Assembly (NCBI GenBank): GCA_020849295.1
Contig: JADLGN010000009.1
Span: 51,705-115,704 of the forward strand
DNA from: Bacteroidia bacterium
GTDB lineage: Bacteria; Bacteroidota; Bacteroidia; NS11-12g; UBA9320
Direction: 5' to 3'
Length of the DNA: 64,000 nucleotides
Made by a program: the position numbers and the translations under genes. Below are positions 15,809 to 51,119 of this stretch, piece after piece. A model generated the notes under the pieces. That model saw only the letters and a list, made by a program, of their open reading frames with translations. It was not told the origin of the DNA and searched no databases. The number at the start of each line of letters is the position of its first letter. Position 1 is the stretch's first letter.

Positions 15809-15823
15809 CTAAATTTACCGCAC

Positions 15824-16918
15824 TTGGAATTACTGAATCAAATAGCACTTACGCAAATTGAAGGTGTAGGAAATGTATTGGCTAAAAATCTTATAAGCTA
15901 CTGCGGAAGTGCATCAGATGTTTTTAAAACAAAAAAATCTTTATTATTAAAAATTCCCGATATAGGCGAATACACAGCAAAATCAATAATTTCATTTTCT
16001 GATTTCAGCAAAGCCGAAAAAGAATTAAAATTTATAGAACAACATAAAATAAAAACTTATTTTTATGCTTCGCAAAATTATCCTTACAGACTAAAAAGCA
16101 ATAATGATTGCCCAATTTTGCTATACCAACTTGGAGACGCAGATATAAATGCCGATAAAATAATTTCAATTGTAGGAACAAGAAAACCTACAGAATACGG
16201 AAAGAATTTTTGCGAAAATCTTATAGAAAATATTGCTGAAACAAATGCTACTATTATAAGTGGAATGGCTTATGGAATAGATATTTGTGCTCATAAGGCT
16301 TCTCTTAAAAACAATTTGCCTACTGTTGGAGTTCTTGCTCATGGATTAGACAAATTATATCCTGCAGAACATAAAAAATTTGCAAAAAATATTATTGAAA
16401 ACGGGGGTTCATTATTAACTGAATTTTTATCAGGGACAAACCCTGATCGCGAAAATTTTCCCAAAAGAAACCGTATAGTTGCAGGATTGAGCGATGCTGT
16501 AATTGTAATAGAAACTGCTATTCGCGGTGGTTCTATGATTACAGCAGAACTTGCTTGGCAATACGACCGCGTACTTATGGCTTTGCCAGGTAAAATAAAT
16601 GATGAAAAATCTGCCGGTTGCAATTTTCTTATTAAGACAAACAAGGCTGAAATGATTGAAAATGCTGTTGATTTATTGCACTCATTGGGTTGGGATATTA
16701 TAAAAGGTAAAAATACTAAACAAAAAGAACTACCCATAAACCTGAGTGAAGACGAAATGTTAATTTACAATTTATTAAATGAGAAAAAATTTATTGAAAT
16801 AGATGAAATTATAAGCTTATCGAGATTGAATAGTGGCAAAGTTGCTCTTACATTGCTCGATTTGGAAATAAAAGGATTTATAAAATCATTGCCAGGAAAG
16901 AGATTTCAATTATTATGA
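15824..16918 (+). CDS. dprA: DNA processing protein DprA (Smf)
   Basis: SAM-like N-terminal domain, a Rossmann-like DprA core (IVGTRKPT...GMAYGID) and a C-terminal winged-helix region. Overlaps the queA start by 4 nt. Confidence 0.9.
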   Translation: MELLNQIALTQIEGVGNVLAKNLISYCGSASDVFKTKKSLLLKIPDIGEYTAKSIISFSDFSKAEKELKFIEQHKIKTYFYASQNYPYRLKSNNDCPILLYQLGDADINADKIISIVGTRKPTEYGKNFCENLIENIAETNATIISGMAYGIDICAHKASLKNNLPTVGVLAHGLDKLYPAEHKKFAKNIIENGGSLLTEFLSGTNPDRENFPKRNRIVAGLSDAVIVIETAIRGGSMITAELAWQYDRVLMALPGKINDEKSAGCNFLIKTNKAEMIENAVDLLHSLGWDIIKGKNTKQKELPINLSEDEMLIYNLLNEKKFIEIDEIISLSRLNSGKVALTLLDLEIKGFIKSLPGKRFQLL

Positions 16919-18114
16919 TACCCGAAAATATCAGAAAAATTAAAATTAGCGACTTTAACTTTGCATTTACTGATGAATTAATAGCTCAACAACCTTTAAT
17001 AAACAGAGATGAATCAAAACTTTTACATTATAAAAATTCAATAATTCATCATAGGATATTCAAAGAATTTCCAGAATTGCTTAATTCAAATTCACAAATA
17101 ATTTTAAATAACGCTAAAGTAATTTCTGCAAGGTTATTTTTTTACAGAGATAGCGGCTCAAAAATAGAAATACTATTACTCGAACCTCATAATTCATTTA
17201 ATTCGCTTGAAACTGCACTAAGCAATAGCCAAAAAAGCATGTGGAAGTGCATGATTGGCAATTTGAAAAAATGGAAGAAAAATGAGATTTTAAAATCTAA
17301 AGTTGGTAAAATTGCTGTTTCGGCAAAGTTACTTGACAACATAAATCAAACTGTAGAATTTACATGGGACAACAATGTTTCATTTAGCGAAATTATTGAA
17401 CTGTCGGGCACAACCCCTCTCCCGCCCTACATAAAACGTGAGGCAAACGAAAATGATAAAAAAACGTATCAGACAATTTTTGCTAAAAATATAGGAGCAG
17501 TAGCTGCTCCTACGGCTGGTCTTCATTTTACAGAAAATATTTTAGATAAAATTAAAGATAAAAAAATAGATATTGCCGAAGTAACTTTGTATGTAAGTGC
17601 AGGTACTTTTTTACCTGTTAAGGCAGAATTTCCGATTGACCATTCTATGCACTCTGAAATGATATCGGTTTCAAAAAATACAATATCAAATCTAATAAAT
17701 AACAAATACAGAGTTGCAATAGGAACTACTTCACTTCGTACGCTTGAAAGTTTATATTGGATTGGTGTAAAAATATTAAAGTGTGAAGAAAACCCTTTTT
17801 ACATTGAAAAGTTATATCCTTACAATTTCTACAAATTACCTATTTCATGGAATGAATCAATGAGTGAAATAATAAATTATTTAGAAAAAAACTCAATTGA
17901 CACTGTAAATGCTAAAACTGAAATTATGATAATGCCGGGATATAATTTTTCATCTGTAAATTCTCTTTTAACTAATTTTCACTACCCAAACTCTACTCTT
18001 GTAATGCTAATTGCAGCATTTATTGGAGATAACTGGCACAATTTGTATCATAAAGCTATCGAAAATAGTTATCGCTTTTTAAGCTATGGCGATTGCTGCC
18101 TTCTTGACCCCTAA
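16915..18114 (+). CDS. queA: S-adenosylmethionine:tRNA ribosyltransferase-isomerase QueA
   Basis: Conserved QueA blocks (LLHYK, AAPTAGLHFT, TLYVSAGTF, GTTSLRTLES). Confidence 0.85.
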   Translation: MIPENIRKIKISDFNFAFTDELIAQQPLINRDESKLLHYKNSIIHHRIFKEFPELLNSNSQIILNNAKVISARLFFYRDSGSKIEILLLEPHNSFNSLETALSNSQKSMWKCMIGNLKKWKKNEILKSKVGKIAVSAKLLDNINQTVEFTWDNNVSFSEIIELSGTTPLPPYIKREANENDKKTYQTIFAKNIGAVAAPTAGLHFTENILDKIKDKKIDIAEVTLYVSAGTFLPVKAEFPIDHSMHSEMISVSKNTISNLINNKYRVAIGTTSLRTLESLYWIGVKILKCEENPFYIEKLYPYNFYKLPISWNESMSEIINYLEKNSIDTVNAKTEIMIMPGYNFSSVNSLLTNFHYPNSTLVMLIAAFIGDNWHNLYHKAIENSYRFLSYGDCCLLDP

Positions 18115-19238
18115 GACAAACCGCTTCTATTGTATTTTCTGCCTTTCCATTCTGATTTTAAAGGTAAAAAATAAAATATGATTGTAGAAAAAGTTATAAG
18201 ATAAAGGTATATTTCATAAATAAAATAGAATATTATTCCTTTATTAAATTCCATTTTTGTTTTTTTAAATAATGAGTAAATAAATACTGTCTGTAAAATG
18301 AATTTTAATAACCATAAAATAAAAGCAAATGAAGGACTAAAAACAAACAAAATAATAAGTGAGGGCAAAAATAAACCATAAATAATTATCATAATTTTCC
18401 AGTTTACAGGCAGTTCATTTCCCCCTATAAGCCAGCGTTTTCGCTGATGCAACAACTCTTTGATTGAAGAAATATATGTTGCAAGCCCAAGCGAATCTAC
18501 GTTTAGTAAATTTTGCCAATCCCAGCCACGTTTTGTTACTTCCGAAAATAATTTGTAATCTTCTGTTATAGAAAATTCTATTTTTTCATATCCGCCCGTT
18601 TGGCGATACGCCTCTGCCCTAACAGCCATATTATTACCGACTGATGTGCACGAAACTCCTGCATTGGCAAAAGCTTTTATGTAACCCATAAAATGCAGCC
18701 AGTCCATTGTTTGTAAATTTTCGAAAAAACCTCCCGTCTGGCATGTTGTAGTTCCTGAAACTATACCTACATTATCATTAAAATTAGAAAGTATTGATTT
18801 TATCCAATTTTTGTTCACAGCAACATCGCAATCTGTAATAAAATAAAATTCACCTTTTGCTTCATTTGCCAAGTGTGCAAGTACATTTGCCTTACCTGCT
18901 GATTTTCCTATATTATATTTTATATCTAATAATCTGAAATTACTCTTTCTTTTTATAAATTCAATTACAATATCTCTAGTATTATCTTGCGAATCGTCAT
19001 TACCAATTAAAAATTCAATCTTATCAAAAGGGTAGTCAATATTTGAAAAGGATTCAAGACATCTTTTTATTGTTTTCTCTTCATTTCTTGCAGCAAGCAA
19101 AACTGACACTATTGGTAATTCATCAAATTTTTTTGATGTTATTTTTCTATCTATAAAAATATATACAACACTAAAAATCTGTATTGATATGAAAATAGAA
19201 ATTATTAAAAGTGAAAAATAAATGAGTAAACTTTCCAT
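18111..19238 (-). CDS. processive family-2 glycosyltransferase (NodC/PgaC/IcaA/cellulose-synthase-like beta-glycan synthase)
   Basis: N-terminal TM helix, the GT2 DxD-type motifs (DDSQDNT, ITDCDVA) and the hallmark Q-x-x-R-W motif (QRKRW) followed by C-terminal TM helices. The start overlaps the deacetylase stop (TAATG). Confidence 0.8.
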   Translation of the reverse strand: MESLLIYFSLLIISIFISIQIFSVVYIFIDRKITSKKFDELPIVSVLLAARNEEKTIKRCLESFSNIDYPFDKIEFLIGNDDSQDNTRDIVIEFIKRKSNFRLLDIKYNIGKSAGKANVLAHLANEAKGEFYFITDCDVAVNKNWIKSILSNFNDNVGIVSGTTTCQTGGFFENLQTMDWLHFMGYIKAFANAGVSCTSVGNNMAVRAEAYRQTGGYEKIEFSITEDYKLFSEVTKRGWDWQNLLNVDSLGLATYISSIKELLHQRKRWLIGGNELPVNWKIMIIIYGLFLPSLIILFVFSPSFAFILWLLKFILQTVFIYSLFKKTKMEFNKGIIFYFIYEIYLYLITFSTIIFYFLPLKSEWKGRKYNRSGLS

Positions 19239-19855
19239 TACTCAAATACTTTTGATTTATAATTTTCATTTGAAAGAAATTTTAGATACTCAGGCAATAA
19301 AAATTCTAAATTTTTTCGAGCTTTTTCACTGTCATGAAATACAATAATATCTCCGCTTGCAGTATTTTTTATTAGCTTATTTATTTTTCTTGTTAAATTC
19401 AAATTAGGATTCCAATCTTCAGCGAGCAAACTCCACATTACTATCGAAAATTTTTTTTTAATTTGCCTTATTTGTGAAAATTTTAATTGCCCATGTGGAG
19501 GTCTAAAATATTTGCTTTTTACCAACTTTTCACATTGATTTATATTTTCAAAATAATTTTCATTTTTTGTTCTAAAACCTCTTAAATGATTGAAAGTGTG
19601 ATTTGCAACGCAATGACCTCTTTTTAATATTTCATTATATACAATAGGATATTTTTCTACATTATTTCCTATACAAAAAAAAGTAGCTTTAAAATTATAT
19701 TTATCTAATTCGTCAAGTACATAATTAGTAATTTCGGGGTGTGGACCATCATCAAAAGTAAGATATATTGACTTTTCAATATCTTTTATATTCCAAATCA
19801 GGTTTGGATATAAATATTTAAGAATAGATGGTGTTCGTGCCGGTAGCAGTTTTTT
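19238..19855 (-). CDS. polysaccharide deacetylase (NodB/CE4 family); complete domain but no canonical start codon
   Basis: Continuous frame encoding ...IYLTFDDGPHPE...CVANHTFNHL...YFRPPHGQ... with NodB motifs 1-3. The only ATG/GTG/TTG in frame is the TTG at 19525, which would remove motifs 1-2. The frame is contiguous with recA, separated only by its TAA stop. Confidence 0.6.
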   Translation of the reverse strand, partial: KKLLPARTPSILKYLYPNLIWNIKDIEKSIYLTFDDGPHPEITNYVLDELDKYNFKATFFCIGNNVEKYPIVYNEILKRGHCVANHTFNHLRGFRTKNENYFENINQCEKLVKSKYFRPPHGQLKFSQIRQIKKKFSIVMWSLLAEDWNPNLNLTRKINKLIKNTASGDIIVFHDSEKARKNLEFLLPEYLKFLSNENYKSKVFE

Positions 19856-20881
19856 TTAATTTGATGTTTGAACAGATTTCTCTGGCTTATTAAATTTATC
19901 TCTGATTTTTGCTTCAATTTCATCAGCAAGTTCAGGATTGTCGTGCAAAAGCTGTTTTACCGCATCTCGTCCTTGTCCTAATTTTGTACCGTTGTAGCTA
20001 AACCAAGAACCGCTTTTTTGAACAATCTCCAACTCAGTGCCAATATCAATTATTTCGCCAATTTTTGATATTCCTTCGCCAAACATTATATCAAACTCTA
20101 CAGTACGAAAAGGTGGTGCTACTTTATTTTTGGCTACTTTCACTTTTACTCGGTTTCCGGTAGCATCAAGTCCATCTTTTATTTGGTTCACTCTTCTAAT
20201 GTCAAGCCTTATTGATGCATAAAATTTTAGAGCATTGCCTCCGGTAGTTGTTTCCGGATTACCAAACATTATTCCTATTTTTTCGCGTAGCTGATTTATA
20301 AATATACAAATACATCCTGTTTTGTTAATAGTTCCTGTTAGCTTTCTTAATGCCTGGCTCATCAACCTTGCTTGCAAGCCCATTTTACTATCACCCATAT
20401 CTCCTTCTATTTCTGCTTTTGGAACTAATGCTGCCACAGAGTCAATCACTATAACATCAATGGCTCCCGAACGGATAAGATTATCTGCTATTTCAAGAGC
20501 CTGTTCGCCGTCATCAGGCTGCGATATAAGCATTTCAGATGTATTTATTCCTATTTTCTCAGCATAAGTTTTGTCAAACGCATGTTCTGCATCAATAAAT
20601 GCAGCCAAACCTCCTTTTTTTTGTGCTTCGGCTATACAATGCATTGCTAGAGTAGTTTTTCCACTACTTTCAGGTCCATAAATTTCAATTACCCTACCCT
20701 TCGGAAATCCACCTACTCCAAGTGCTATATCTAAACCTATAGAACCGGTTGAAATTACTTCCATTGTTCCAATTCCCGGATCATCCATTTTCATTACTAT
20801 TCCTTTTCCGAAACTCTTCTCGAGTTTATCTATAGTAAGTTTTAATACTTTTAATTTTTCTGATTGTTCATTTTGACTCAT
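19856..20881 (-). CDS. recA: recombinase RecA
   Basis: Walker A (GPESSGKTT), L1/L2 loops and a 341-aa length with end-to-end RecA similarity. Confidence 0.97.
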
Positions 20882-20987: not shown

Positions 20988-22847
20988 TTGCATGGTTTGA
21001 GCACAAAATTTTCAGTACAAAATTTTCAGGTTTTTTTGTTGATTAAACGCTTTGTGGTAGCATTGGCGGTTTTGTTTACTGCAAGATTGTTTTTTTACAT
21101 TTACAATTTAAACTCTTTTAAAATTAGCAACCTATCAGAATTTGTGAATGTATTCTTTTGGGGGTCTTATTTTGATTTAATTTCGGTTTTTTATCTTTTG
21201 CTTCCTTTTATATTATTGAGTTTGCTGCCATTTAATTTTACTATTAACGCTTTTTATCAGAAAATATTAAAAGTATTTTTTATTGTAATAACTTTTTCAA
21301 TTTTAATACTTACAATTATAGATGCGGTTTATTATCCATTTTCAAAAACCCGAATTGGATTTGAAGTTTTTAAAATGGCTGCAAGTGAAGAAATAAGTAT
21401 TATTCAATATGTTTTTTCTTATTGGTATATTTTACCTTTTGCTGCTTTATTAGCTTATTTTATATTTAGAATTTATCCTGAAAACAAAAACAAAAATTTA
21501 ATAAAATGGCATGTTGAACTTCCTATAAATTTGATTTTTATTTTAGTTTTAGCTTTTACTATCAGAGGCGGGCTAAGATTGAAGCCCTTGCGAAGTATTG
21601 ATGCTTCATTGTTTGTAAAACCACAGCATACTCAACTAACTATAAGCACAGGGTTTAATATTATAGAATCTTTTCAAGCTGAAAGCATTGCCAATGTAAA
21701 CTATATAAATCAAATTCAATTTAGCAAGGTACAGAACAAAGATTATATCGCTATAAATAGTAATATAATTAAGCCAAAAAATATATTTATCATAATTCTT
21801 GAAAGTTTTGGGAAAGAGTACTGTTTCCCAAACATATCTAACACTGTTTACTATACTCCTTTTTTAAGCGAGCTTGCACTAAGGAGTGAATTTTACTCAA
21901 AAGCATACAGCAATGGCACTCGCAGTGTTGATGCTATTCCTGCTATACTCGAAGGTGTGCCTAAACTTACAAAGTCAGATTTTATGTATTCAAACTATAT
22001 AAAAAATATCACTCCCGGTTTTGCTTTTTATCTGAATAAAATAGGATATTCCTGTAATTTCTATCATGGCGGGATAAATGGTACATTGGGGTTTGAAGCA
22101 TTTCTTAAATCGAGGGGTTGGAATTATTACGGAAAAAACCAATATATCGGAAAAAAGGAAGATTATGACGGAAACTGGGGAATTTACGATGGTCCGTATC
22201 TCAATTATGTAAAAAATGAAGTAAATAAATATCAAAAACCTTTTGTAACTGTTGTATTTACTCTCAGCAGTCATCACCCTTATAAATTACCGGTTGAATA
22301 CATAGACAGTTTTAAAAAAATAAACAAACCCATCCATCGTACTGTAAAATATGTTGACAATTGTCTTAGAAATTTTTTCAAATCGATAAAAAATGAAGAA
22401 TGGTATAACAATACATTATTTATTATTACAGCCGACCACAGTGCTGAAAATTTTACAAAACAATACAACACCATTAATGGGAAATATGAAGTTCCACTTT
22501 TAGTTTATGAGCCTTTGAAAAACAAAAGTGACACCATAAATAAAATAATACAGCACATAGATATTTTACCATTAGCATTAAGTAAATCTGGCTATAACGG
22601 AAGAATTTTCACTATTGGAACTTTTTTAAAAAAAGATGCAGTAAAAATGTCTTTTCATAACGAAGACGGTATCTACACAGCTTTTACTGATTCTTTATGT
22701 ATTACTTTTGATGGGAAAAAATCAAAGTTTTTCAATTTATATAATAAGCAAAAACCAAAAGCAGAAAAAAGTAAAATTCTCGAGTATGAATTTAAATGTA
22801 TAATTCAGGATTTCAACAATCGAATTATTTCAAATAAGTTTTATTAA
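20988..22847 (+). CDS. LTA synthase family / sulfatase-like membrane phosphotransferase (alkaline phosphatase superfamily)
   Basis: Five N-terminal TM helices followed by an extracytoplasmic sulfatase-fold domain (ILESFGKEY, NGTRSVDA, SSHHPY). The true start may be the in-frame TTG at 21036 or 21039. Confidence 0.75.
   Translation: MHGLSTKFSVQNFQVFLLIKRFVVALAVLFTARLFFYIYNLNSFKISNLSEFVNVFFWGSYFDLISVFYLLLPFILLSLLPFNFTINAFYQKILKVFFIVITFSILILTIIDAVYYPFSKTRIGFEVFKMAASEEISIIQYVFSYWYILPFAALLAYFIFRIYPENKNKNLIKWHVELPINLIFILVLAFTIRGGLRLKPLRSIDASLFVKPQHTQLTISTGFNIIESFQAESIANVNYINQIQFSKVQNKDYIAINSNIIKPKNIFIIILESFGKEYCFPNISNTVYYTPFLSELALRSEFYSKAYSNGTRSVDAIPAILEGVPKLTKSDFMYSNYIKNITPGFAFYLNKIGYSCNFYHGGINGTLGFEAFLKSRGWNYYGKNQYIGKKEDYDGNWGIYDGPYLNYVKNEVNKYQKPFVTVVFTLSSHHPYKLPVEYIDSFKKINKPIHRTVKYVDNCLRNFFKSIKNEEWYNNTLFIITADHSAENFTKQYNTINGKYEVPLLVYEPLKNKSDTINKIIQHIDILPLALSKSGYNGRIFTIGTFLKKDAVKMSFHNEDGIYTAFTDSLCITFDGKKSKFFNLYNKQKPKAEKSKILEYEFKCIIQDFNNRIISNKFY
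21003..21029. repeat. tandem direct repeat acaaaattttcag x2 at the 5' end of the LTA-synthase-like gene, in the recA-divergent region
   Basis: Direct reading: cACAAAATTTTCAGtACAAAATTTTCAGg. Confidence 0.7.
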
Positions 22848-27123: not shown

Positions 27124-27810
27124 TTACTTAAAAAATTTCCAATAACCGGTTTCAGGAATAGGACATTCAATTTTTATTGTTTCTTTTTTTACAGGGTGTT
27201 CAAATTCGAGAGAGCTTGCATGAAGACATATACTGCCATCTGTATTACTTCTGGGCGAACCATATTTAAGATCACCATAAATCGGACATAAAATTTTAGA
27301 AAGATGAACCCTTATTTGATGATGTCTGCCTGTATATGGCGTTACTTTAAGGAGATAGAAACTATCTGATTTTTGTAAAACCTGATAATGTGTTTTTGAC
27401 AATTTTGCTCCTTTTATTTCTTTGTTAAATGATTTTGAGATATTTTTTTGTGAATCTTTTATAAGATAGCTCTCAATAAAACCATCATCAACCGGCGGTT
27501 TGTTTTTTACAAGTGCAAAATATATTTTAATTATTTCACGAGTTTTGAATAATTCGTTCATTCTGGCAAGAGACTTACTTGATTTTGCAAAAACAACAAT
27601 TCCACTTACAGGGCGGTCTAATCTGTGTATAATACCCAAATATACATTGCCTGGTTTAGTGTCGCGTTTTTTAATATAACTTTTCAATATATCTTCAAGA
27701 GCCAACTCGCCCTCTGGGTTTGGCTGTACAAGCATTCCAGAAAGTTTGTTGAATGCAAGCAAATGATTGTCTTCAAAAATAATTCTCGCTTTAATTTCTG
27801 CTTCGTTCAT
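27124..27810 (-). CDS. RluA-family pseudouridine synthase
   Basis: Catalytic motif HRLDRPVSG. The start overlaps the murB stop by 4 nt. Confidence 0.85.
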   Translation of the reverse strand: MNEAEIKARIIFEDNHLLAFNKLSGMLVQPNPEGELALEDILKSYIKKRDTKPGNVYLGIIHRLDRPVSGIVVFAKSSKSLARMNELFKTREIIKIYFALVKNKPPVDDGFIESYLIKDSQKNISKSFNKEIKGAKLSKTHYQVLQKSDSFYLLKVTPYTGRHHQIRVHLSKILCPIYGDLKYGSPRSNTDGSICLHASSLEFEHPVKKETIKIECPIPETGYWKFFK

Positions 27811-28826
27811 AGTATATTTACTTCCGGGTTTAGTACTATGCCATATTTTTCTTTTACTTTTTCAATAATAAAATTGGCAAGTTGCAATATGTTTTTTCCT
27901 GTAGCATTTCCGTTGTTTATCAAAACAAGTGCTTGTTTGTCGTTTACTTTTGCGTTTCCAAGCTCAAATCCTTTAAGTCCTGCATTTTCAATAAGCCATG
28001 CTGCTGATATTTTTACTTTGCAATTCTCCTCTGCAAAGTGTCTTATGTCTGGAAATTTTTGAATAATTAATTTAAAATCACTTTCTGCAAGTACCGGATT
28101 TTTAAAGAAACTTCCGGCATTGCCTATAATTTCAGGGTTTGGCAGTTTATTCATTCTTATTTCTTTTACTATATTGCTCACATCCGCAATTGTCGCTTTT
28201 TTAATCCCTTTTTCTTTTATAAGTTTTGAAATATCACCATAAGCTGTATTTAACACAGGTTTTTTATTTAATCTAAAGAAAACATTTGTTATGAAATATT
28301 TATTTTTAGCTTCATTTTTAAAGATACTGTCGCGATAAGCAAATTTACATTCAGAATTATTAAAAATTACTTTTTCTCCGTTTGACAATTTAACAGCTTC
28401 AATCTTATGCAAAGTATCTTTTACTTCAACACCATAAGCACCTATATTTTGAATTGGTGCTGCACCTACTGTTCCTGGTATTAGCGATAAATTTTCTATC
28501 CCTCCCCAATCATTTTTTACACAATAATCTACAAAATCGCTCCAAATTTCTCCTGAGGCTACTTTTAAAACAATTTGGCTTGAATCTTCAAAATATACAA
28601 ATATTCCTTTAAGAGAATTTTTAAGCACCAATCCATCAAAATTTTTAGTAAAAAGAATATTGCTTCCGCCTCCAATTATCAAAAAATTTTCTTCTAGCCT
28701 GCTTTCTTTAATAACTTTTTGTAATTGAATTTCATTCTTTATCTCAACAAGTTCATTACAATAGGCTGATATTTTAAAAGTGTTGTATGGCAGAAGACTT
28801 ATCAAATTTTTGATATTTTTTTGCAA
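27807..28826 (-). CDS. murB: UDP-N-acetylenolpyruvoylglucosamine reductase MurB
   Basis: FAD-binding PCMH domain (IIGGGSNILF), 339 aa, with MurB C-terminal domain patterns. Confidence 0.88.
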   Translation of the reverse strand: MQKNIKNLISLLPYNTFKISAYCNELVEIKNEIQLQKVIKESRLEENFLIIGGGSNILFTKNFDGLVLKNSLKGIFVYFEDSSQIVLKVASGEIWSDFVDYCVKNDWGGIENLSLIPGTVGAAPIQNIGAYGVEVKDTLHKIEAVKLSNGEKVIFNNSECKFAYRDSIFKNEAKNKYFITNVFFRLNKKPVLNTAYGDISKLIKEKGIKKATIADVSNIVKEIRMNKLPNPEIIGNAGSFFKNPVLAESDFKLIIQKFPDIRHFAEENCKVKISAAWLIENAGLKGFELGNAKVNDKQALVLINNGNATGKNILQLANFIIEKVKEKYGIVLNPEVNIL

Positions 28827-28858
28827 AATTAATCAATGACATGTAGCTTTTTGTAAAT

Positions 28859-44168: not shown

Positions 44169-46985
44169 GTGTCAGCTCAAGAAAAATTCATAAAAATAAA
44201 AGGTGCAAAACTTCATAATTTAAAAAATATAGATGTAAATATTCCCCGAAATAAACTTGTTGTGGTTACTGGAGTTTCAGGTTCAGGAAAATCTACACTT
44301 GTATTTGATACACTTTTTGCCGAAGGACAAAGGCGATATGTAGAAAGTTTATCATCTTATGCCCGACAATTTCTTGGAAAACTTGAAAAACCCGAAGTAG
44401 ATAGTATAAGCGGACTTTCTCCTTCAATAGCAATAGAACAAAAAGTAAATACACGAAACCCAAGAAGCACAGTAGCAACAAGTACCGAAATTTATGAATA
44501 CCTAAAATTACTTTTTGCCCGTGCAGGACATACTTTTAGTCCTGTTAGCAACAAAGAAGTGAAATGTTTCGAAATTAAAGATGTTGTTAATTTTATAAAT
44601 TCTTTAGATGAAGAAAGTCAAATTTTAATTACTGTAAAGCTATCTGCATCTAAAGATTTGATAAGTAAAATAAGGACTTTAATGCAAAATGGGTTTACAA
44701 GAATTATGATAGACAATAGTCTTGTAAAAATTGAGGATGTATTAAAATCACCTAATGATTTTAAATTAAAAAATGTTTATCTGATTATTGATCGTCTTAT
44801 AATAGACAAAAATGAAACAATGGCTGATTCACGTATTGCCGACTCAGTAGAAACAGCTTTTTACGAAGGTCATGGTGAAATTGAAATAATTGTAAAACAC
44901 AATGATGTTCAACAAAAACATAACTTTTCAAATCGTTTTGAATTAGATGGAATTAAATTTGAAAAGCCCAGTGTAAATCTTCTTAGTTTTAATAATCCTT
45001 ATGGAGCATGTAAACGCTGCGAAGGTTTTGGTAATATAATAGGAATTGATGAAGATTTAGTAATTACAGACAAAAATTTATCATTTTACGAAGGTGCAGT
45101 TGTTCCATGGAGAAGTGAAGGAATGACCGAGTGGAAAAACAATTTTATAAAAAAATCAATAAATTATGATTTCCCAGTTCACAGGGCATACAATCAACTT
45201 ACAGAAAGAGAAAAACAACTATTGTGGAATGGTAATAATGAAATTGAAGGAATTTACAATTTCTTTAAATACATTGAAGAACAATCGTACAAAATTCAAT
45301 ACCGTGTAATGCTAAGCAAATACCGTGGTAAAACAGTATGTCCTGATTGCCGTGGTGTAAGGCTTCGCAAAGATGCTTCATACATAAAACTTGTAAATAA
45401 AAACAATATAAATCTCGATTTCATATTTAGTGGTAAATATGCATCAATAAATGATATTTTACTAATGCCGGTAGAAACAGCTTTTAATTATTTTGACAAA
45501 ATAAAACTGAATGACCATGATGAAAAAATTGCAAACAGACTGCTTTTGGAAATTAAAAACAGATTAAAATACTTACTTGATGTTGGGCTTGGATACCTTT
45601 CACTTAATAGATTAAGCAACAGTTTGAGCGGTGGAGAATCGCAAAGAATAAATCTTGCCACATCGCTTGGCAGCAGCCTTGTTGGCAGCACATATATTCT
45701 TGATGAACCAAGTATAGGGTTGCATCCGCGTGACACTGAAAAACTCATTCAAGTTTTACATAATCTTAAAAAATTAGGCAATTCAGTTATTATTGTAGAG
45801 CACGATGAAGAAATAATGAACTCATCAGATCATATAATTGATATAGGACCACGAGCAGGAACCCTTGGCGGAAAGGTTGTATTTGAAGGCCATTTTAATG
45901 AAATTTTCAAAAGTGATAGCTTAACAGGCAAATATCTTTCTGGTAAAATGAAAATTGAAACACCACTAAAAAGAAGAAGTTGGAGTAATTTTATAAAACT
46001 TGAAAAATGCAGTTTGAATAACTTGAAAAATATTGATGTTGTTTTTCCATTGAATATTATTACATGTGTAACCGGAGTAAGCGGAAGCGGAAAAACATCT
46101 TTAGTGAAAGGAATATTTTATCCGGCAATACAAAAGGCATCAGGAAATTTTACTAATCTTAAAACAGGCAAATTTGAAAATATTTCGGGTGATTTTAAAT
46201 CTATTAAATCAGTAGAATTAATAGACCAAAATCCAATAGGAAAATCAACAAGAAGCAATCCTGTAACATATATTAAGGCTTGGGATAGTATTCGCGATTT
46301 GTATTCAGAACAAGCATTAGCAAAAAGAAATGGCTTTAAGCCACAGCATTTTTCATTTAATGTTGACGGTGGGCGATGTGAGCAATGTAAGGGCGAAGGG
46401 GAAGAAACCATTGAAATGCAATTTATGGCTGATTTGCATATAACATGCGAGTCATGCAAGGGCCAAAAGTTTAAAAATGAAGTTTTAGAAATAACTTATA
46501 AAGGTAAAAATATTTACGAGATTTTATGCCTGACAATAGATGAAGCAATTGATTTTTTTGCCGACAAAGCAAATATTTCATTAAAACTAAAACCTTTGCA
46601 GGAAGTAGGACTTGGATATGTAAAACTTGGTCAAAGCAGTGCATCTCTTAGTGGCGGCGAAGCTCAAAGGGTAAAACTTGCATCTTTTCTTTCTGCAGGC
46701 AAAAACACTGAGCATGTAATGTTTATTTTTGATGAACCTACAACAGGACTTCATTTTAATGATATCGAAAAGTTATTAAAGTCTTTTAATTCATTAATTG
46801 CAAACGGACATACTGTAATAATAATTGAGCATAATATTGAAGTAATAAAATGTGCAGACTGGATAATAGATATAGGACCCGATGGTGGCGAAAACGGTGG
46901 AAATATAATATTTGAAGGGACCCCCGAATTATTAATAAAAACGAAAAACAGCCATACTGCAAAATTTCTAAAATCTAAACTTTAG
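44169..46985 (+). CDS. uvrA: excinuclease ABC subunit UvrA
   Basis: Two ABC ATPase modules (Walker [10 protein letters not shown] twice), zinc-finger CxxC clusters, 938 aa, GTG start. Confidence 0.95.
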
Positions 46986-49322: not shown

Positions 49323-51119
49323 TTGATAAAATCACGACATTCATACCTTATTGTATCTGCAATTTTTATTTTTGCTATAGTTTTTCATTCATGCAAAAAA
49401 TCAAGGAAACTTGAAACTACTATTAATGTTGAGGAACTAATTAAAGGTTTAGACCATTCAAAACTTTCTCAGCTATTGGTATATAAGGCTAAAAACAGCA
49501 ACTATAAACCACCCGGAGTAAAATACACAGAACATGCCGATACACTTAATTACTTTTATATAGAAAATGAAGGCGAACCGGTATGGCTCGGTTTATTAAA
49601 AGATTCTATTTTCAGAATTAAACTTATTGAAATTTTAAATTCTTCAGAAAAGCACGGGCTTAAATCATCATATTATAATACAAAAATCATAGAAAAGTAT
49701 TTGATGAAATTTGATAGTTTGAATGAGATTAGAACAAATGAAGATTATAATTTTTTATCAGACCTTGATTACACAATTTCTTTATCAGTTATAAGTCTTT
49801 ATTCAGACTTGGCGTTGGGACATATTAATCCATATAAATTTTACAAACCAAACTATACTCTTATTTCGTCCAAATCAATTAATTTTAATATTTTTTCGGT
49901 ATTATATCATCCTTTTTCTTTTGGTGACTCAATAGCTATAAAATCTCCTTGCAGTATTAGATATCATACATTACAGTTGATTTATCAAAATTATCTCGAT
50001 TACATTAATAACAATAACATTTTAGATTATGATACTTCTTTAAATGGAAATTCAGAACATAATATAAAAGTAATAGATCAAAGGCTCGATTTGCTATGGA
50101 ACACTTTAAATAAAATAGAGCAAAAACCTTTAGTAAATATAACTGCAAACAGAGAGAAGCTAATTTCAAAAACAAGAATAATGTATGGATTGCCGGCAGG
50201 GAAAACTGACTCAATATTTATTGAAAGATTTTACAAACCAGCCAATGAATTAACAGATGAAATATTAAGCAATCTTGAGCAGGAAAGATGGTTTTCAATA
50301 CCGGACACCGGACAGTTTGTATTAGTAAGGCTTACGCAATACATTGCCGAAATACACACAGACAGTGTAAGACAAATGAAAGTATGTATAGGAAAAAATA
50401 AAGCAATAGATTTCGACGAAAAATATAAGCGATATTTAAAAACTAAAAATTATTTACAAAAGCCCATAAATACTGAAACACCAATAATTCAAGGATATTT
50501 GAGCGAAATAGTTATTAATCCTACTTGGACTGTCCCAAATAGTATTATTGGTAAAGAAATGTATTCAAAAATATTGAGTAATCCTGATTACTTAACCAAC
50601 AAAGGATATGAAGTTTTGTTGAATGGCAAAGTTATTTCGCCACGCAGTTTGAATTGGAATAAATACAGTCCTTATAATGTTCCTGTAAAAATTAGACAAA
50701 AATCAGGAACAACTAATTCTCTAGGAATTTTAAAGTTTAATTTCCCAAATGCTTTTAATATCTATATGCATGATACCCCCGAAAAAAATAAATTTAATAA
50801 TACAAATAGAGCAGTAAGCCATGGTTGTATAAGGCTGCATAAGCCAGTAAAGATGGCTGAAATATTATTGAACATACAGTCAGATTCATCACTTACTGAT
50901 AAACTCAGACTAAAACTTGGACTACAGCCTTATGATACTTCTCTTCATGTAGTTGATTCATTATTAAAACCAATTAAGAACACAGAGTCAATTAAACTAA
51001 AAAAACAAATACCAGTATATTTATATTATCGCACAATAAATGTTGAAAGAAATGGAAATATAAGTTTTAATCATGACATTTATAAGCGAAACAAAGCAAT
51101 TGCAAAAAAATTAAAATAA
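49323..51119 (+). CDS. L,D-transpeptidase (YcbB/YkuD family) with N-terminal peptidoglycan-binding-like region
   Basis: Canonical YkuD active site HDTPE...SHGCIRL near the C-terminus; 598 aa with a membrane anchor or signal. Confidence 0.8.
   Translation: MIKSRHSYLIVSAIFIFAIVFHSCKKSRKLETTINVEELIKGLDHSKLSQLLVYKAKNSNYKPPGVKYTEHADTLNYFYIENEGEPVWLGLLKDSIFRIKLIEILNSSEKHGLKSSYYNTKIIEKYLMKFDSLNEIRTNEDYNFLSDLDYTISLSVISLYSDLALGHINPYKFYKPNYTLISSKSINFNIFSVLYHPFSFGDSIAIKSPCSIRYHTLQLIYQNYLDYINNNNILDYDTSLNGNSEHNIKVIDQRLDLLWNTLNKIEQKPLVNITANREKLISKTRIMYGLPAGKTDSIFIERFYKPANELTDEILSNLEQERWFSIPDTGQFVLVRLTQYIAEIHTDSVRQMKVCIGKNKAIDFDEKYKRYLKTKNYLQKPINTETPIIQGYLSEIVINPTWTVPNSIIGKEMYSKILSNPDYLTNKGYEVLLNGKVISPRSLNWNKYSPYNVPVKIRQKSGTTNSLGILKFNFPNAFNIYMHDTPEKNKFNNTNRAVSHGCIRLHKPVKMAEILLNIQSDSSLTDKLRLKLGLQPYDTSLHVVDSLLKPIKNTESIKLKKQIPVYLYYRTINVERNGNISFNHDIYKRNKAIAKKLK

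Follow-up and report, generated by a model that had tools for sequence, protein, structure and literature searches.

Introduction

CUG, AUU, AUC and AUA are recognised as rare start codons in bacteria (translation table 11). Conserved non-canonical starts are known from infC, which encodes the initiation factor IF3, and from pcnB. Both genes start with AUU, a codon that is taken to set or regulate their expression level, and in infC it forms part of an autoregulatory loop, as IF3 itself discriminates against AUU. Here we describe a gene for a polysaccharide deacetylase of the CE4/NodB type that lies directly behind recA in a stretch of 64,000 nucleotides (nt) from a member of the Bacteroidia (assembly GCA_020849295.1, contig JADLGN010000009.1, positions 51,705 to 115,704 of the forward strand). 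This whole stretch is referred to as the window and all coordinates are counted from its first letter. The gene is very likely functional and provided with a conserved CTG start codon at 19847–19849.

CUG starts of this kind are uncommon but on record. Only very seldom has a start codon changed to CUG in evolution, for example at one of 2,468 ancestral UUG starts (PMC5622118), and initiation at CUG in E. coli amounts to ~0.02–3% of the AUG level (bioRxiv 10.1101/063800). The deacetylase gene resembles other rare non-canonical starts in that a near-cognate codon is present where orthologues have AUG and in that low efficiency is to be expected. It differs from them in that CUG persists throughout a clade whose proteins share as little as 65% identity, and seemingly arose at least two times. 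The hosts of the window gene differ as well. They are Bacteroidia, whose ribosomes ignore Shine-Dalgarno sequences, and their use of CUG is a prediction from sequence comparison. No paper on CUG starts in Bacteroidetes came up in a search of the literature. The nearest conceptual parallel is provided by infC and pcnB, where an otherwise normal gene likewise possesses an evolutionarily conserved non-canonical start; however, the codon in our case is CUG instead of AUU, and a CE4 deacetylase offers no obvious basis for autoregulation.

Gene pairs translated by termination-reinitiation constitute a further related system (Huber et al., 2023; PMC10666635). An intergenic distance in the range of −8 to +10 nt is treated as predictive of this process, which is possible up to about +10 nt and is lost by ~20–40 nt (PMC10666635). 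The window locus is similar in that the deacetylase gene follows recA at +6 nt and is itself followed at −1 nt, with a TAATG overlap, by a gene for a GT2 glycosyltransferase; both distances lie within that range. It differs in that the published pairs, studied in E. coli and Haloferax, use canonical codons for the restart (PMC10666635), and in that a related locus, L174, argues that dependence on recA is not essential for the deacetylase (designations of this type denote homologous loci and the lineages that carry them).

A deacetylase gene with a probable CTG start behind recA

On the minus strand, the frame behind the recA stop codon runs uninterrupted over 205 sense codons, from the TAA at 19856–19858 to a TAA at 19238–19240 (translation 19858→19238). 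In this frame no canonical start codon (ATG, GTG or TTG) precedes the TTG at 19523–19525, which is codon 109. CE4 motifs 1 and 2 both reside upstream of it, and RPPHG, EDW and IIVFHD downstream. An earlier note on this DNA had described a frame open from one TAA to the other that is devoid of canonical start codons ahead of this TTG, had pointed out that a start there (TTG at 19525) would remove both metal-binding motifs and had drawn attention to the TAATG overlap with the GT2 gene; all of this is borne out by translation and by the position of the motifs. The elements of the locus are the following:

19856–20881, minus strand: recA, 341 amino acids (aa), stop codon TAA at 19856–19858; contained in the list of open reading frames (ORFs), Pfam RecA with E = 1.6e-134, exact match to NCBI MCC6721007.1
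19850–19855, minus strand: spacer AAAAAA, 6 nt, from the recA stop to CTG; forms a run of eight A with the stop
19847–19849, minus strand: CTG, at which the deacetylase is proposed to start; matches the homologues' M in the alignment, and MCC6721006.1 begins here
19238–19849, minus strand: coding sequence (CDS) of the polysaccharide deacetylase (CE4/NodB), 203 codons plus TAA; PF01522
19799–19801, minus strand: second in-frame CTG (Leu17), an ordinary leucine codon; TTG, TTA or CTT in other lineages
19742–19759, minus strand: CE4 motif 1, TFDDGP; invariant in 50 homologues
19586–19600, minus strand: CE4 motif 2, HTFNH (H84, H88); both histidines invariant in 50 homologues
19523–19525, minus strand: TTG, first canonical start codon, codon 109; a start here would mean loss of motifs 1 and 2
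18111–19238, minus strand: GT2 glycosyltransferase, 375 aa; its ATG at 19236–19238 overlaps the deacetylase stop as TAATG; NCBI MCC6721005.1

A run of codons lacking a canonical start is not unusual as such. For a given stretch, an in-frame run of 108 codons without ATG, GTG or TTG has a probability of ~0.014 in sequence with a GC content of 29.5%, and runs of at least 112 codons without an in-frame canonical start are present in ten of 40 long ORFs of the window. What is odd is solely that the N-terminus lacks a canonical codon. In this respect the deacetylase gene is the sole real gene in the 64-kilobase window, and a genome-wide habit of CTG starts was rejected for this reason. An A8 homopolymer (19850–19857) is made up of the final AA of the recA stop codon plus the entire spacer, and is of equal length in the independent assembly L001.

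Conservation of the start position among relatives

The majority among the 120 best homologues comprise about 202 aa and begin with MLPTRTPQLLKWLYPSLIW. The window reads (CTG)L-LPARTPSILKYLYPNLIW, and its CTG at 19847–19849 aligns with the methionine of the homologues (M-LPTRTP versus CTG-LPARTP). At the aligned codon, CTG is present in six out of six lineages of the window's clade (the window with L001, L002, L004, L167, L168 and L170), which share 65–89% protein identity. None of the six has a canonical start upstream of TFDDGP, save that L002 and L004 possess a TTG as codon 17. The assemblies of this clade derive from many independent samples and have the gene order sulfatase / recA / deacetylase / GT2 / queA / dprA in common. 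Gene calls for the closest relatives, made by Prodigal-type callers, are short (160, 187 and 157 aa).

In ~160 further loci from Bacteroidota, the gene almost always starts with ATG, situated ~33–37 codons before TFDDGP. Eight recA-linked sister loci (L007, L008, L087–L091 and L176, 53–67% identity) carry TTG at exactly the aligned codon. The alignment of orthologues that the earlier note had recommended for locating the ancestral start hence returns ATG in most Bacteroidota, TTG in the sisters and CTG in the clade. Among the non-canonical initiation codons which that note had put up for consideration, the CTG at 19847–19849 is strongly supported by the alignment with the homologues' methionine and by its occurrence in six lineages, and agrees with the NCBI product MCC6721006.1; the ATT and ATA candidates are not conserved across lineages.

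Two loci with CTG at the aligned codon are arranged differently. In L173 the codon follows a different upstream gene after 11 nt, and in L174 it lies 164 nt behind the nearest upstream gene. A neighbour-joining tree without support values depicts the recA-adjacent CTG clade as monophyletic and places L174 among the TTG lineages, such that CTG probably arose at least twice in this gene. The related locus L175 (around 535–570) has TTT at the aligned position, ATT one codon before and TTG at codon 9; this member of the gene family may likewise start at a non-canonical codon (ATT), or else at a displaced position. Scans of metagenomes and genomes for further members of the CTG clade yielded none and returned only TTG and ATG relatives.

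A gene for a lipoprotein-like hypothetical protein of ~150 aa is inserted between recA and the deacetylase gene in L008 (1944–2396), L173 (1474–1926) and L174 (1345–1800). It is absent from the CTG clade, where recA abuts the deacetylase gene. In L174 (2001–2676) the deacetylase gene is directly followed by queA without an intervening GT2 gene, and the pairing of deacetylase and GT2 is therefore not universal. A short call of 156 aa in L172 (P0052) was rejected as a further start-less gene, as it is located at a contig edge and positions 1–22 are Illumina adapter (CAGACGTGTGCTCTTCCGATCT).

Selection on the probable start codon and the coding sequence

Codon 1 is exclusively TTG or CTG in 15 of 15 lineages; its second and third bases, T and G, are constant. 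The next leucine codon (Leu2) varies over four synonyms (CTA, TTA, CTT and CTC) in the same 15 lineages. Within the six clade lineages, nine of the 12 columns that are leucine throughout vary in their codon, and the two other invariant columns consist of TTA, the commonest codon; CTG accounts for 4% of the leucine codons in the long ORFs of the window. The CTG at codon 1 is the sole near-cognate codon that all lineages have in common.

The ratio of nonsynonymous to synonymous substitution rates (dN/dS) is 0.09–0.26 for codons 2–108, i.e. the part without a canonical start, and 0.07–0.34 for codons 109–203, with a proportion of synonymous differences (pS) of up to 0.69 in these comparisons. The part without a canonical start is accordingly subject to purifying selection. 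All seven of the CDSs compared are exactly 612 nt long and free of indels and stops. Within the N-terminal segment, P7 and P15 are conserved to at least 90% and W19 is invariant among 50 homologues. The spacer in front of the CTG varies in sequence as well as in length (6, 7 or 9 nt: AAAAAA, AAAAATAAT, GAAAACACT, TATCAAT and TAAAAATAT), which fits an untranslated spacer. Constraint begins directly after the CTG, with dN/dS below 1 downstream, and none is apparent before it, where the spacer is variable. A near-cognate codon is thus found at the start position of the orthologues, and no canonical codon is available that would give a product with the essential motifs.

Properties of the deacetylase

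The complete CE4 domain announced in the earlier note is present. The protein matches PF01522 with 91.7 bits (gathering cut-off 23.1; E = 4.5e-26) and contains all five CE4 motifs (TFDDGP, HTFNH, RPPHG, EDWNP and IIVFHD), by which it resembles other CE4/NodB deacetylases. The motif patterns applied were TFDDG, H(S/T)xxH, RPPxG, DxxDW-like and (I/L)VxHD. Fifty homologues all retain D33, D34, H84, H88, R116, P117, P118, D145 and H172. It differs from the named CE4 equivalogs (NodB, PgdA, PdaA, PdaB) in that its NCBIfam matches all remain far below the respective cut-offs, e.g. 85.8 versus 240 for NodB, and no such name was assigned. The closest solved relative is a peptidoglycan GlcNAc deacetylase (5o6y, E = 5e-26). 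Unlike the solved CE4 relatives, the window protein has a Bacteroidota-specific N-terminal segment of 25 residues, to which they do not align. In the AF2 model of the 203-aa product, the predicted local distance difference test score (pLDDT) is 96.2 overall, 78 for residues 1–10 and 92 for residues 11–20.

Just as NodB is paired with NodC, the window deacetylase adjoins a GT2 of the PgaC/NodC type, and this neighbour suggests deacetylation of a GlcNAc-containing product. A further likeness to the cytoplasmic NodB is that no N-terminal signal peptide is evident, as judged by eye only.

Initiation context and possible coupling to recA

Ribosomes of Bacteroidia work without Shine-Dalgarno pairing. 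Initiation has been reported to depend on weakly structured mRNA, on A at −3, −6, −12 and −13 and on a scarcity of AUG triplets around the start (PMC6847099, PMC13000453). The context of the window CTG agrees with these determinants. A is present at −3, −6, −12 and −13, ATG, GTG and TTG are missing in any frame from −30 to +33, and no significant RNA fold was detected at the CTG (z = −0.45). A search for an RNA element at the junction gave no Rfam match or tRNA in the window.

We propose that translation would start at the CUG at 19847–19849, which would be read by initiator tRNA as methionine and lead to a CE4 enzyme of 203 aa. The start codon appears to have been weakened in the course of evolution, from ATG in most Bacteroidota via TTG in the recA-linked sisters to CTG in the window's clade, where it would since have been retained as an N-T-G codon. 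A-rich, unstructured mRNA lacking competing start-like triplets would be what the ribosomes of Bacteroidia, blind to Shine-Dalgarno sequences, use to pick the start. In view of the low yield of CUG in E. coli, the weak start probably limits the enzyme to small amounts, and likewise the GT2, which is coupled to it by TAATG. As the recA stop is located only 6 nt upstream of the CUG, ribosomes that finish recA may reinitiate there and supply part or even most of the initiation.

The distance from the recA stop to the CTG is 6 nt in the window and 6–9 nt in all six clade lineages. In the TTG relatives the gap between recA and the start amounts to 90 to ~1400 nt and sometimes harbours the extra 150-aa gene. 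With recA and deacetylase gene on the same strand and +6 nt apart, the pair falls inside the range of about −8 to +10 nt (PMC10666635), and reinitiation after recA is a plausible contributor in the window. The arrangement in L174, which keeps CTG within a 164-nt intergenic region, argues that such reinitiation is not required for the use of CTG. Between L174 and L007, codons 2–12 differ by seven synonymous and two non-synonymous changes. Of the termination-reinitiation at the recA stop that the earlier note had envisaged, the spacing of 6–9 nt in the clade is in accord with it, and the case of L174 speaks against its necessity.

The recA genes of the CTG clade all end with AAT TAA (19856–19861 in the window). 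In L002, L004, L167, L168 and L170, not in the window, a methionine codon is positioned three codons before the end of recA; relative to the CTG, this ATG is located at −21 or −19.

Alternative explanations

The coupling to recA could be more than a contribution. If termination-reinitiation were obligatory, initiation at CUG would depend wholly or chiefly on ribosomes fresh from termination at the recA UAA, 6 nt upstream, and synthesis of deacetylase and GT2 would be tied to translation of RecA. We regard this as a possibility to be taken seriously although the odds are against it. CTG goes together with a spacing of 6–9 nt in six lineages and of 11 nt in L173, and with at least 90 nt in the TTG relatives the start is not CTG; reinitiation tolerates gaps of up to +10 nt (PMC10666635), and between recA and the deacetylase gene there is no promoter- or terminator-like signal above background and no room for either. 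On the other hand, L174 combines CTG with an upstream gap of 164 nt and a conserved N-terminal peptide, so CUG seems to be usable without a nearby stop, and the translation initiation region in the window fits de novo initiation in Bacteroidia as well. The correlation between CTG and tight spacing reflects few independent events, and may come down to one or two, and the literature searched contained no study of reinitiation in Bacteroidia. The more far-reaching version, in which deacetylase and GT2 genes have lost a start of their own and are translated essentially only by recA-terminating ribosomes that restart 6–9 nt further on at CUG, is doubtful. If true, it would provide a natural example of reinitiation at a non-canonical codon by ribosomes that do not recognise Shine-Dalgarno sequences, and a glycan-modifying pair would be tied to the synthesis of RecA and thus possibly to induction by DNA damage.

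A start further downstream, at the ATT at 19823–19825, the CTG at 19799–19801 or the ATA at 19787–19789, would shorten the protein by 8–20 residues and leave the catalytic motifs in place. These codons do exist in frame in the window, and gene callers begin at the canonical TTG that forms codon 17 of L002 and L004. Such a start is nevertheless improbable, given that codon 9 (ATT, GTT, CTC, CTG, CTA, TTA, CTT or TTG) and codon 17 (CTG, TTG, TTA, CTT, CTC or GGT) are both unconserved across lineages, that residues 2–16 are conserved among the 50 homologues, notably P7 and P15, with changes that are mostly synonymous, and that residues 8–20 are ordered in the AF2 model. A start upstream in another frame is impossible, as in-frame stops are situated 2–5 codons upstream in every lineage. 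The earlier note had also raised a RecA–deacetylase fusion by readthrough, and a frameshift on the A8 run would have the same outcome. The recA TAA is in frame in the window, as that note had stated, and the A8 run extends across the junction; the relation is not general, however, because L167 has a 7-nt spacer and an out-of-frame recA stop. L168 and L170 carry tandem stops (TAA TAA) at the end of recA, and together these lineages render the in-frame relation in the window incidental. In other lineages the A-run is absent or shorter, for which reason transcriptional or translational slippage on it was rejected, the TTG relatives express the deacetylase from a separate site 90–1400 nt away, and no suppressor tRNA is encoded in the window, which is part of a genome. 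The chance that a fusion is made is close to negligible. It is hardly any greater for a pseudogene that has recently lost its start or for an error of sequencing or assembly at the start, both of which the earlier note had contemplated. They would account for the lack of a canonical start and for the short Prodigal-type calls; yet the part without a canonical start evolves with a dN/dS of 0.09–0.26, the seven CDSs of 612 nt are intact, the five CE4 motifs are kept, and the identical CTG recurs in assemblies from many independent samples, that is in L001 and five further lineages.

Several points weigh against a CUG start of the kind that we favour. The start call by NCBI is automated and follows the same homology logic, so that its agreement is not independent proof. 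Output from CUG may be very low, if the E. coli values apply. A canonical TTG is available at codon 17 in L002 and L004 and at codon 13 in L174, and shorter products are possible in these lineages. In L168 and L170, position −3 is occupied by T, not A.

Gene annotation and significance

An exact-sequence look-up at NCBI identified methionine plus codons 2–203 as MCC6721006.1, located between RecA (MCC6721007.1) and the glycosyltransferase (MCC6721005.1); the equivalent entry for the L004 lineage is NUM30790.1. The deposited annotation therefore already starts the CDS at CTG. Gene calls from Logan, ENA and JGI truncate the deacetylase. Prodigal-type callers trim the family to 157–187 aa or even less, with the motif of the catalytic aspartate missing from the shortest calls. 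Anyone relying on such calls would wrongly take the enzyme for defective. The NCBI pipeline calls the CTG start.

By itself, the CUG start does not reveal a new mechanism. A clade-wide CUG at the end of a series ATG → TTG → CTG would represent a clean natural case of start-codon weakening in the absence of Shine-Dalgarno recognition, and the locus lends itself to testing whether Bacteroidia use CUG de novo or only after nearby termination.

Neighbouring genes

The GT2 gene (minus strand) and queA (plus strand, 16915–18114) are convergent, and their 3' ends have 4 nt in common (18111–18114). No terminator-like site was found at this overlap. The gene of the sulfatase family that diverges from recA has a TTG start at 20988. 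It belongs to a set of long ORFs that apparently start with TTG or GTG and in which ATG first appears after more than 120 codons: 15809–16918 (plus), 20988–22847 (plus), 27807–28832 (minus), 44169–46985 (plus) and 49323–51119 (plus). Weak canonical starts seem to be fairly common in this genome.

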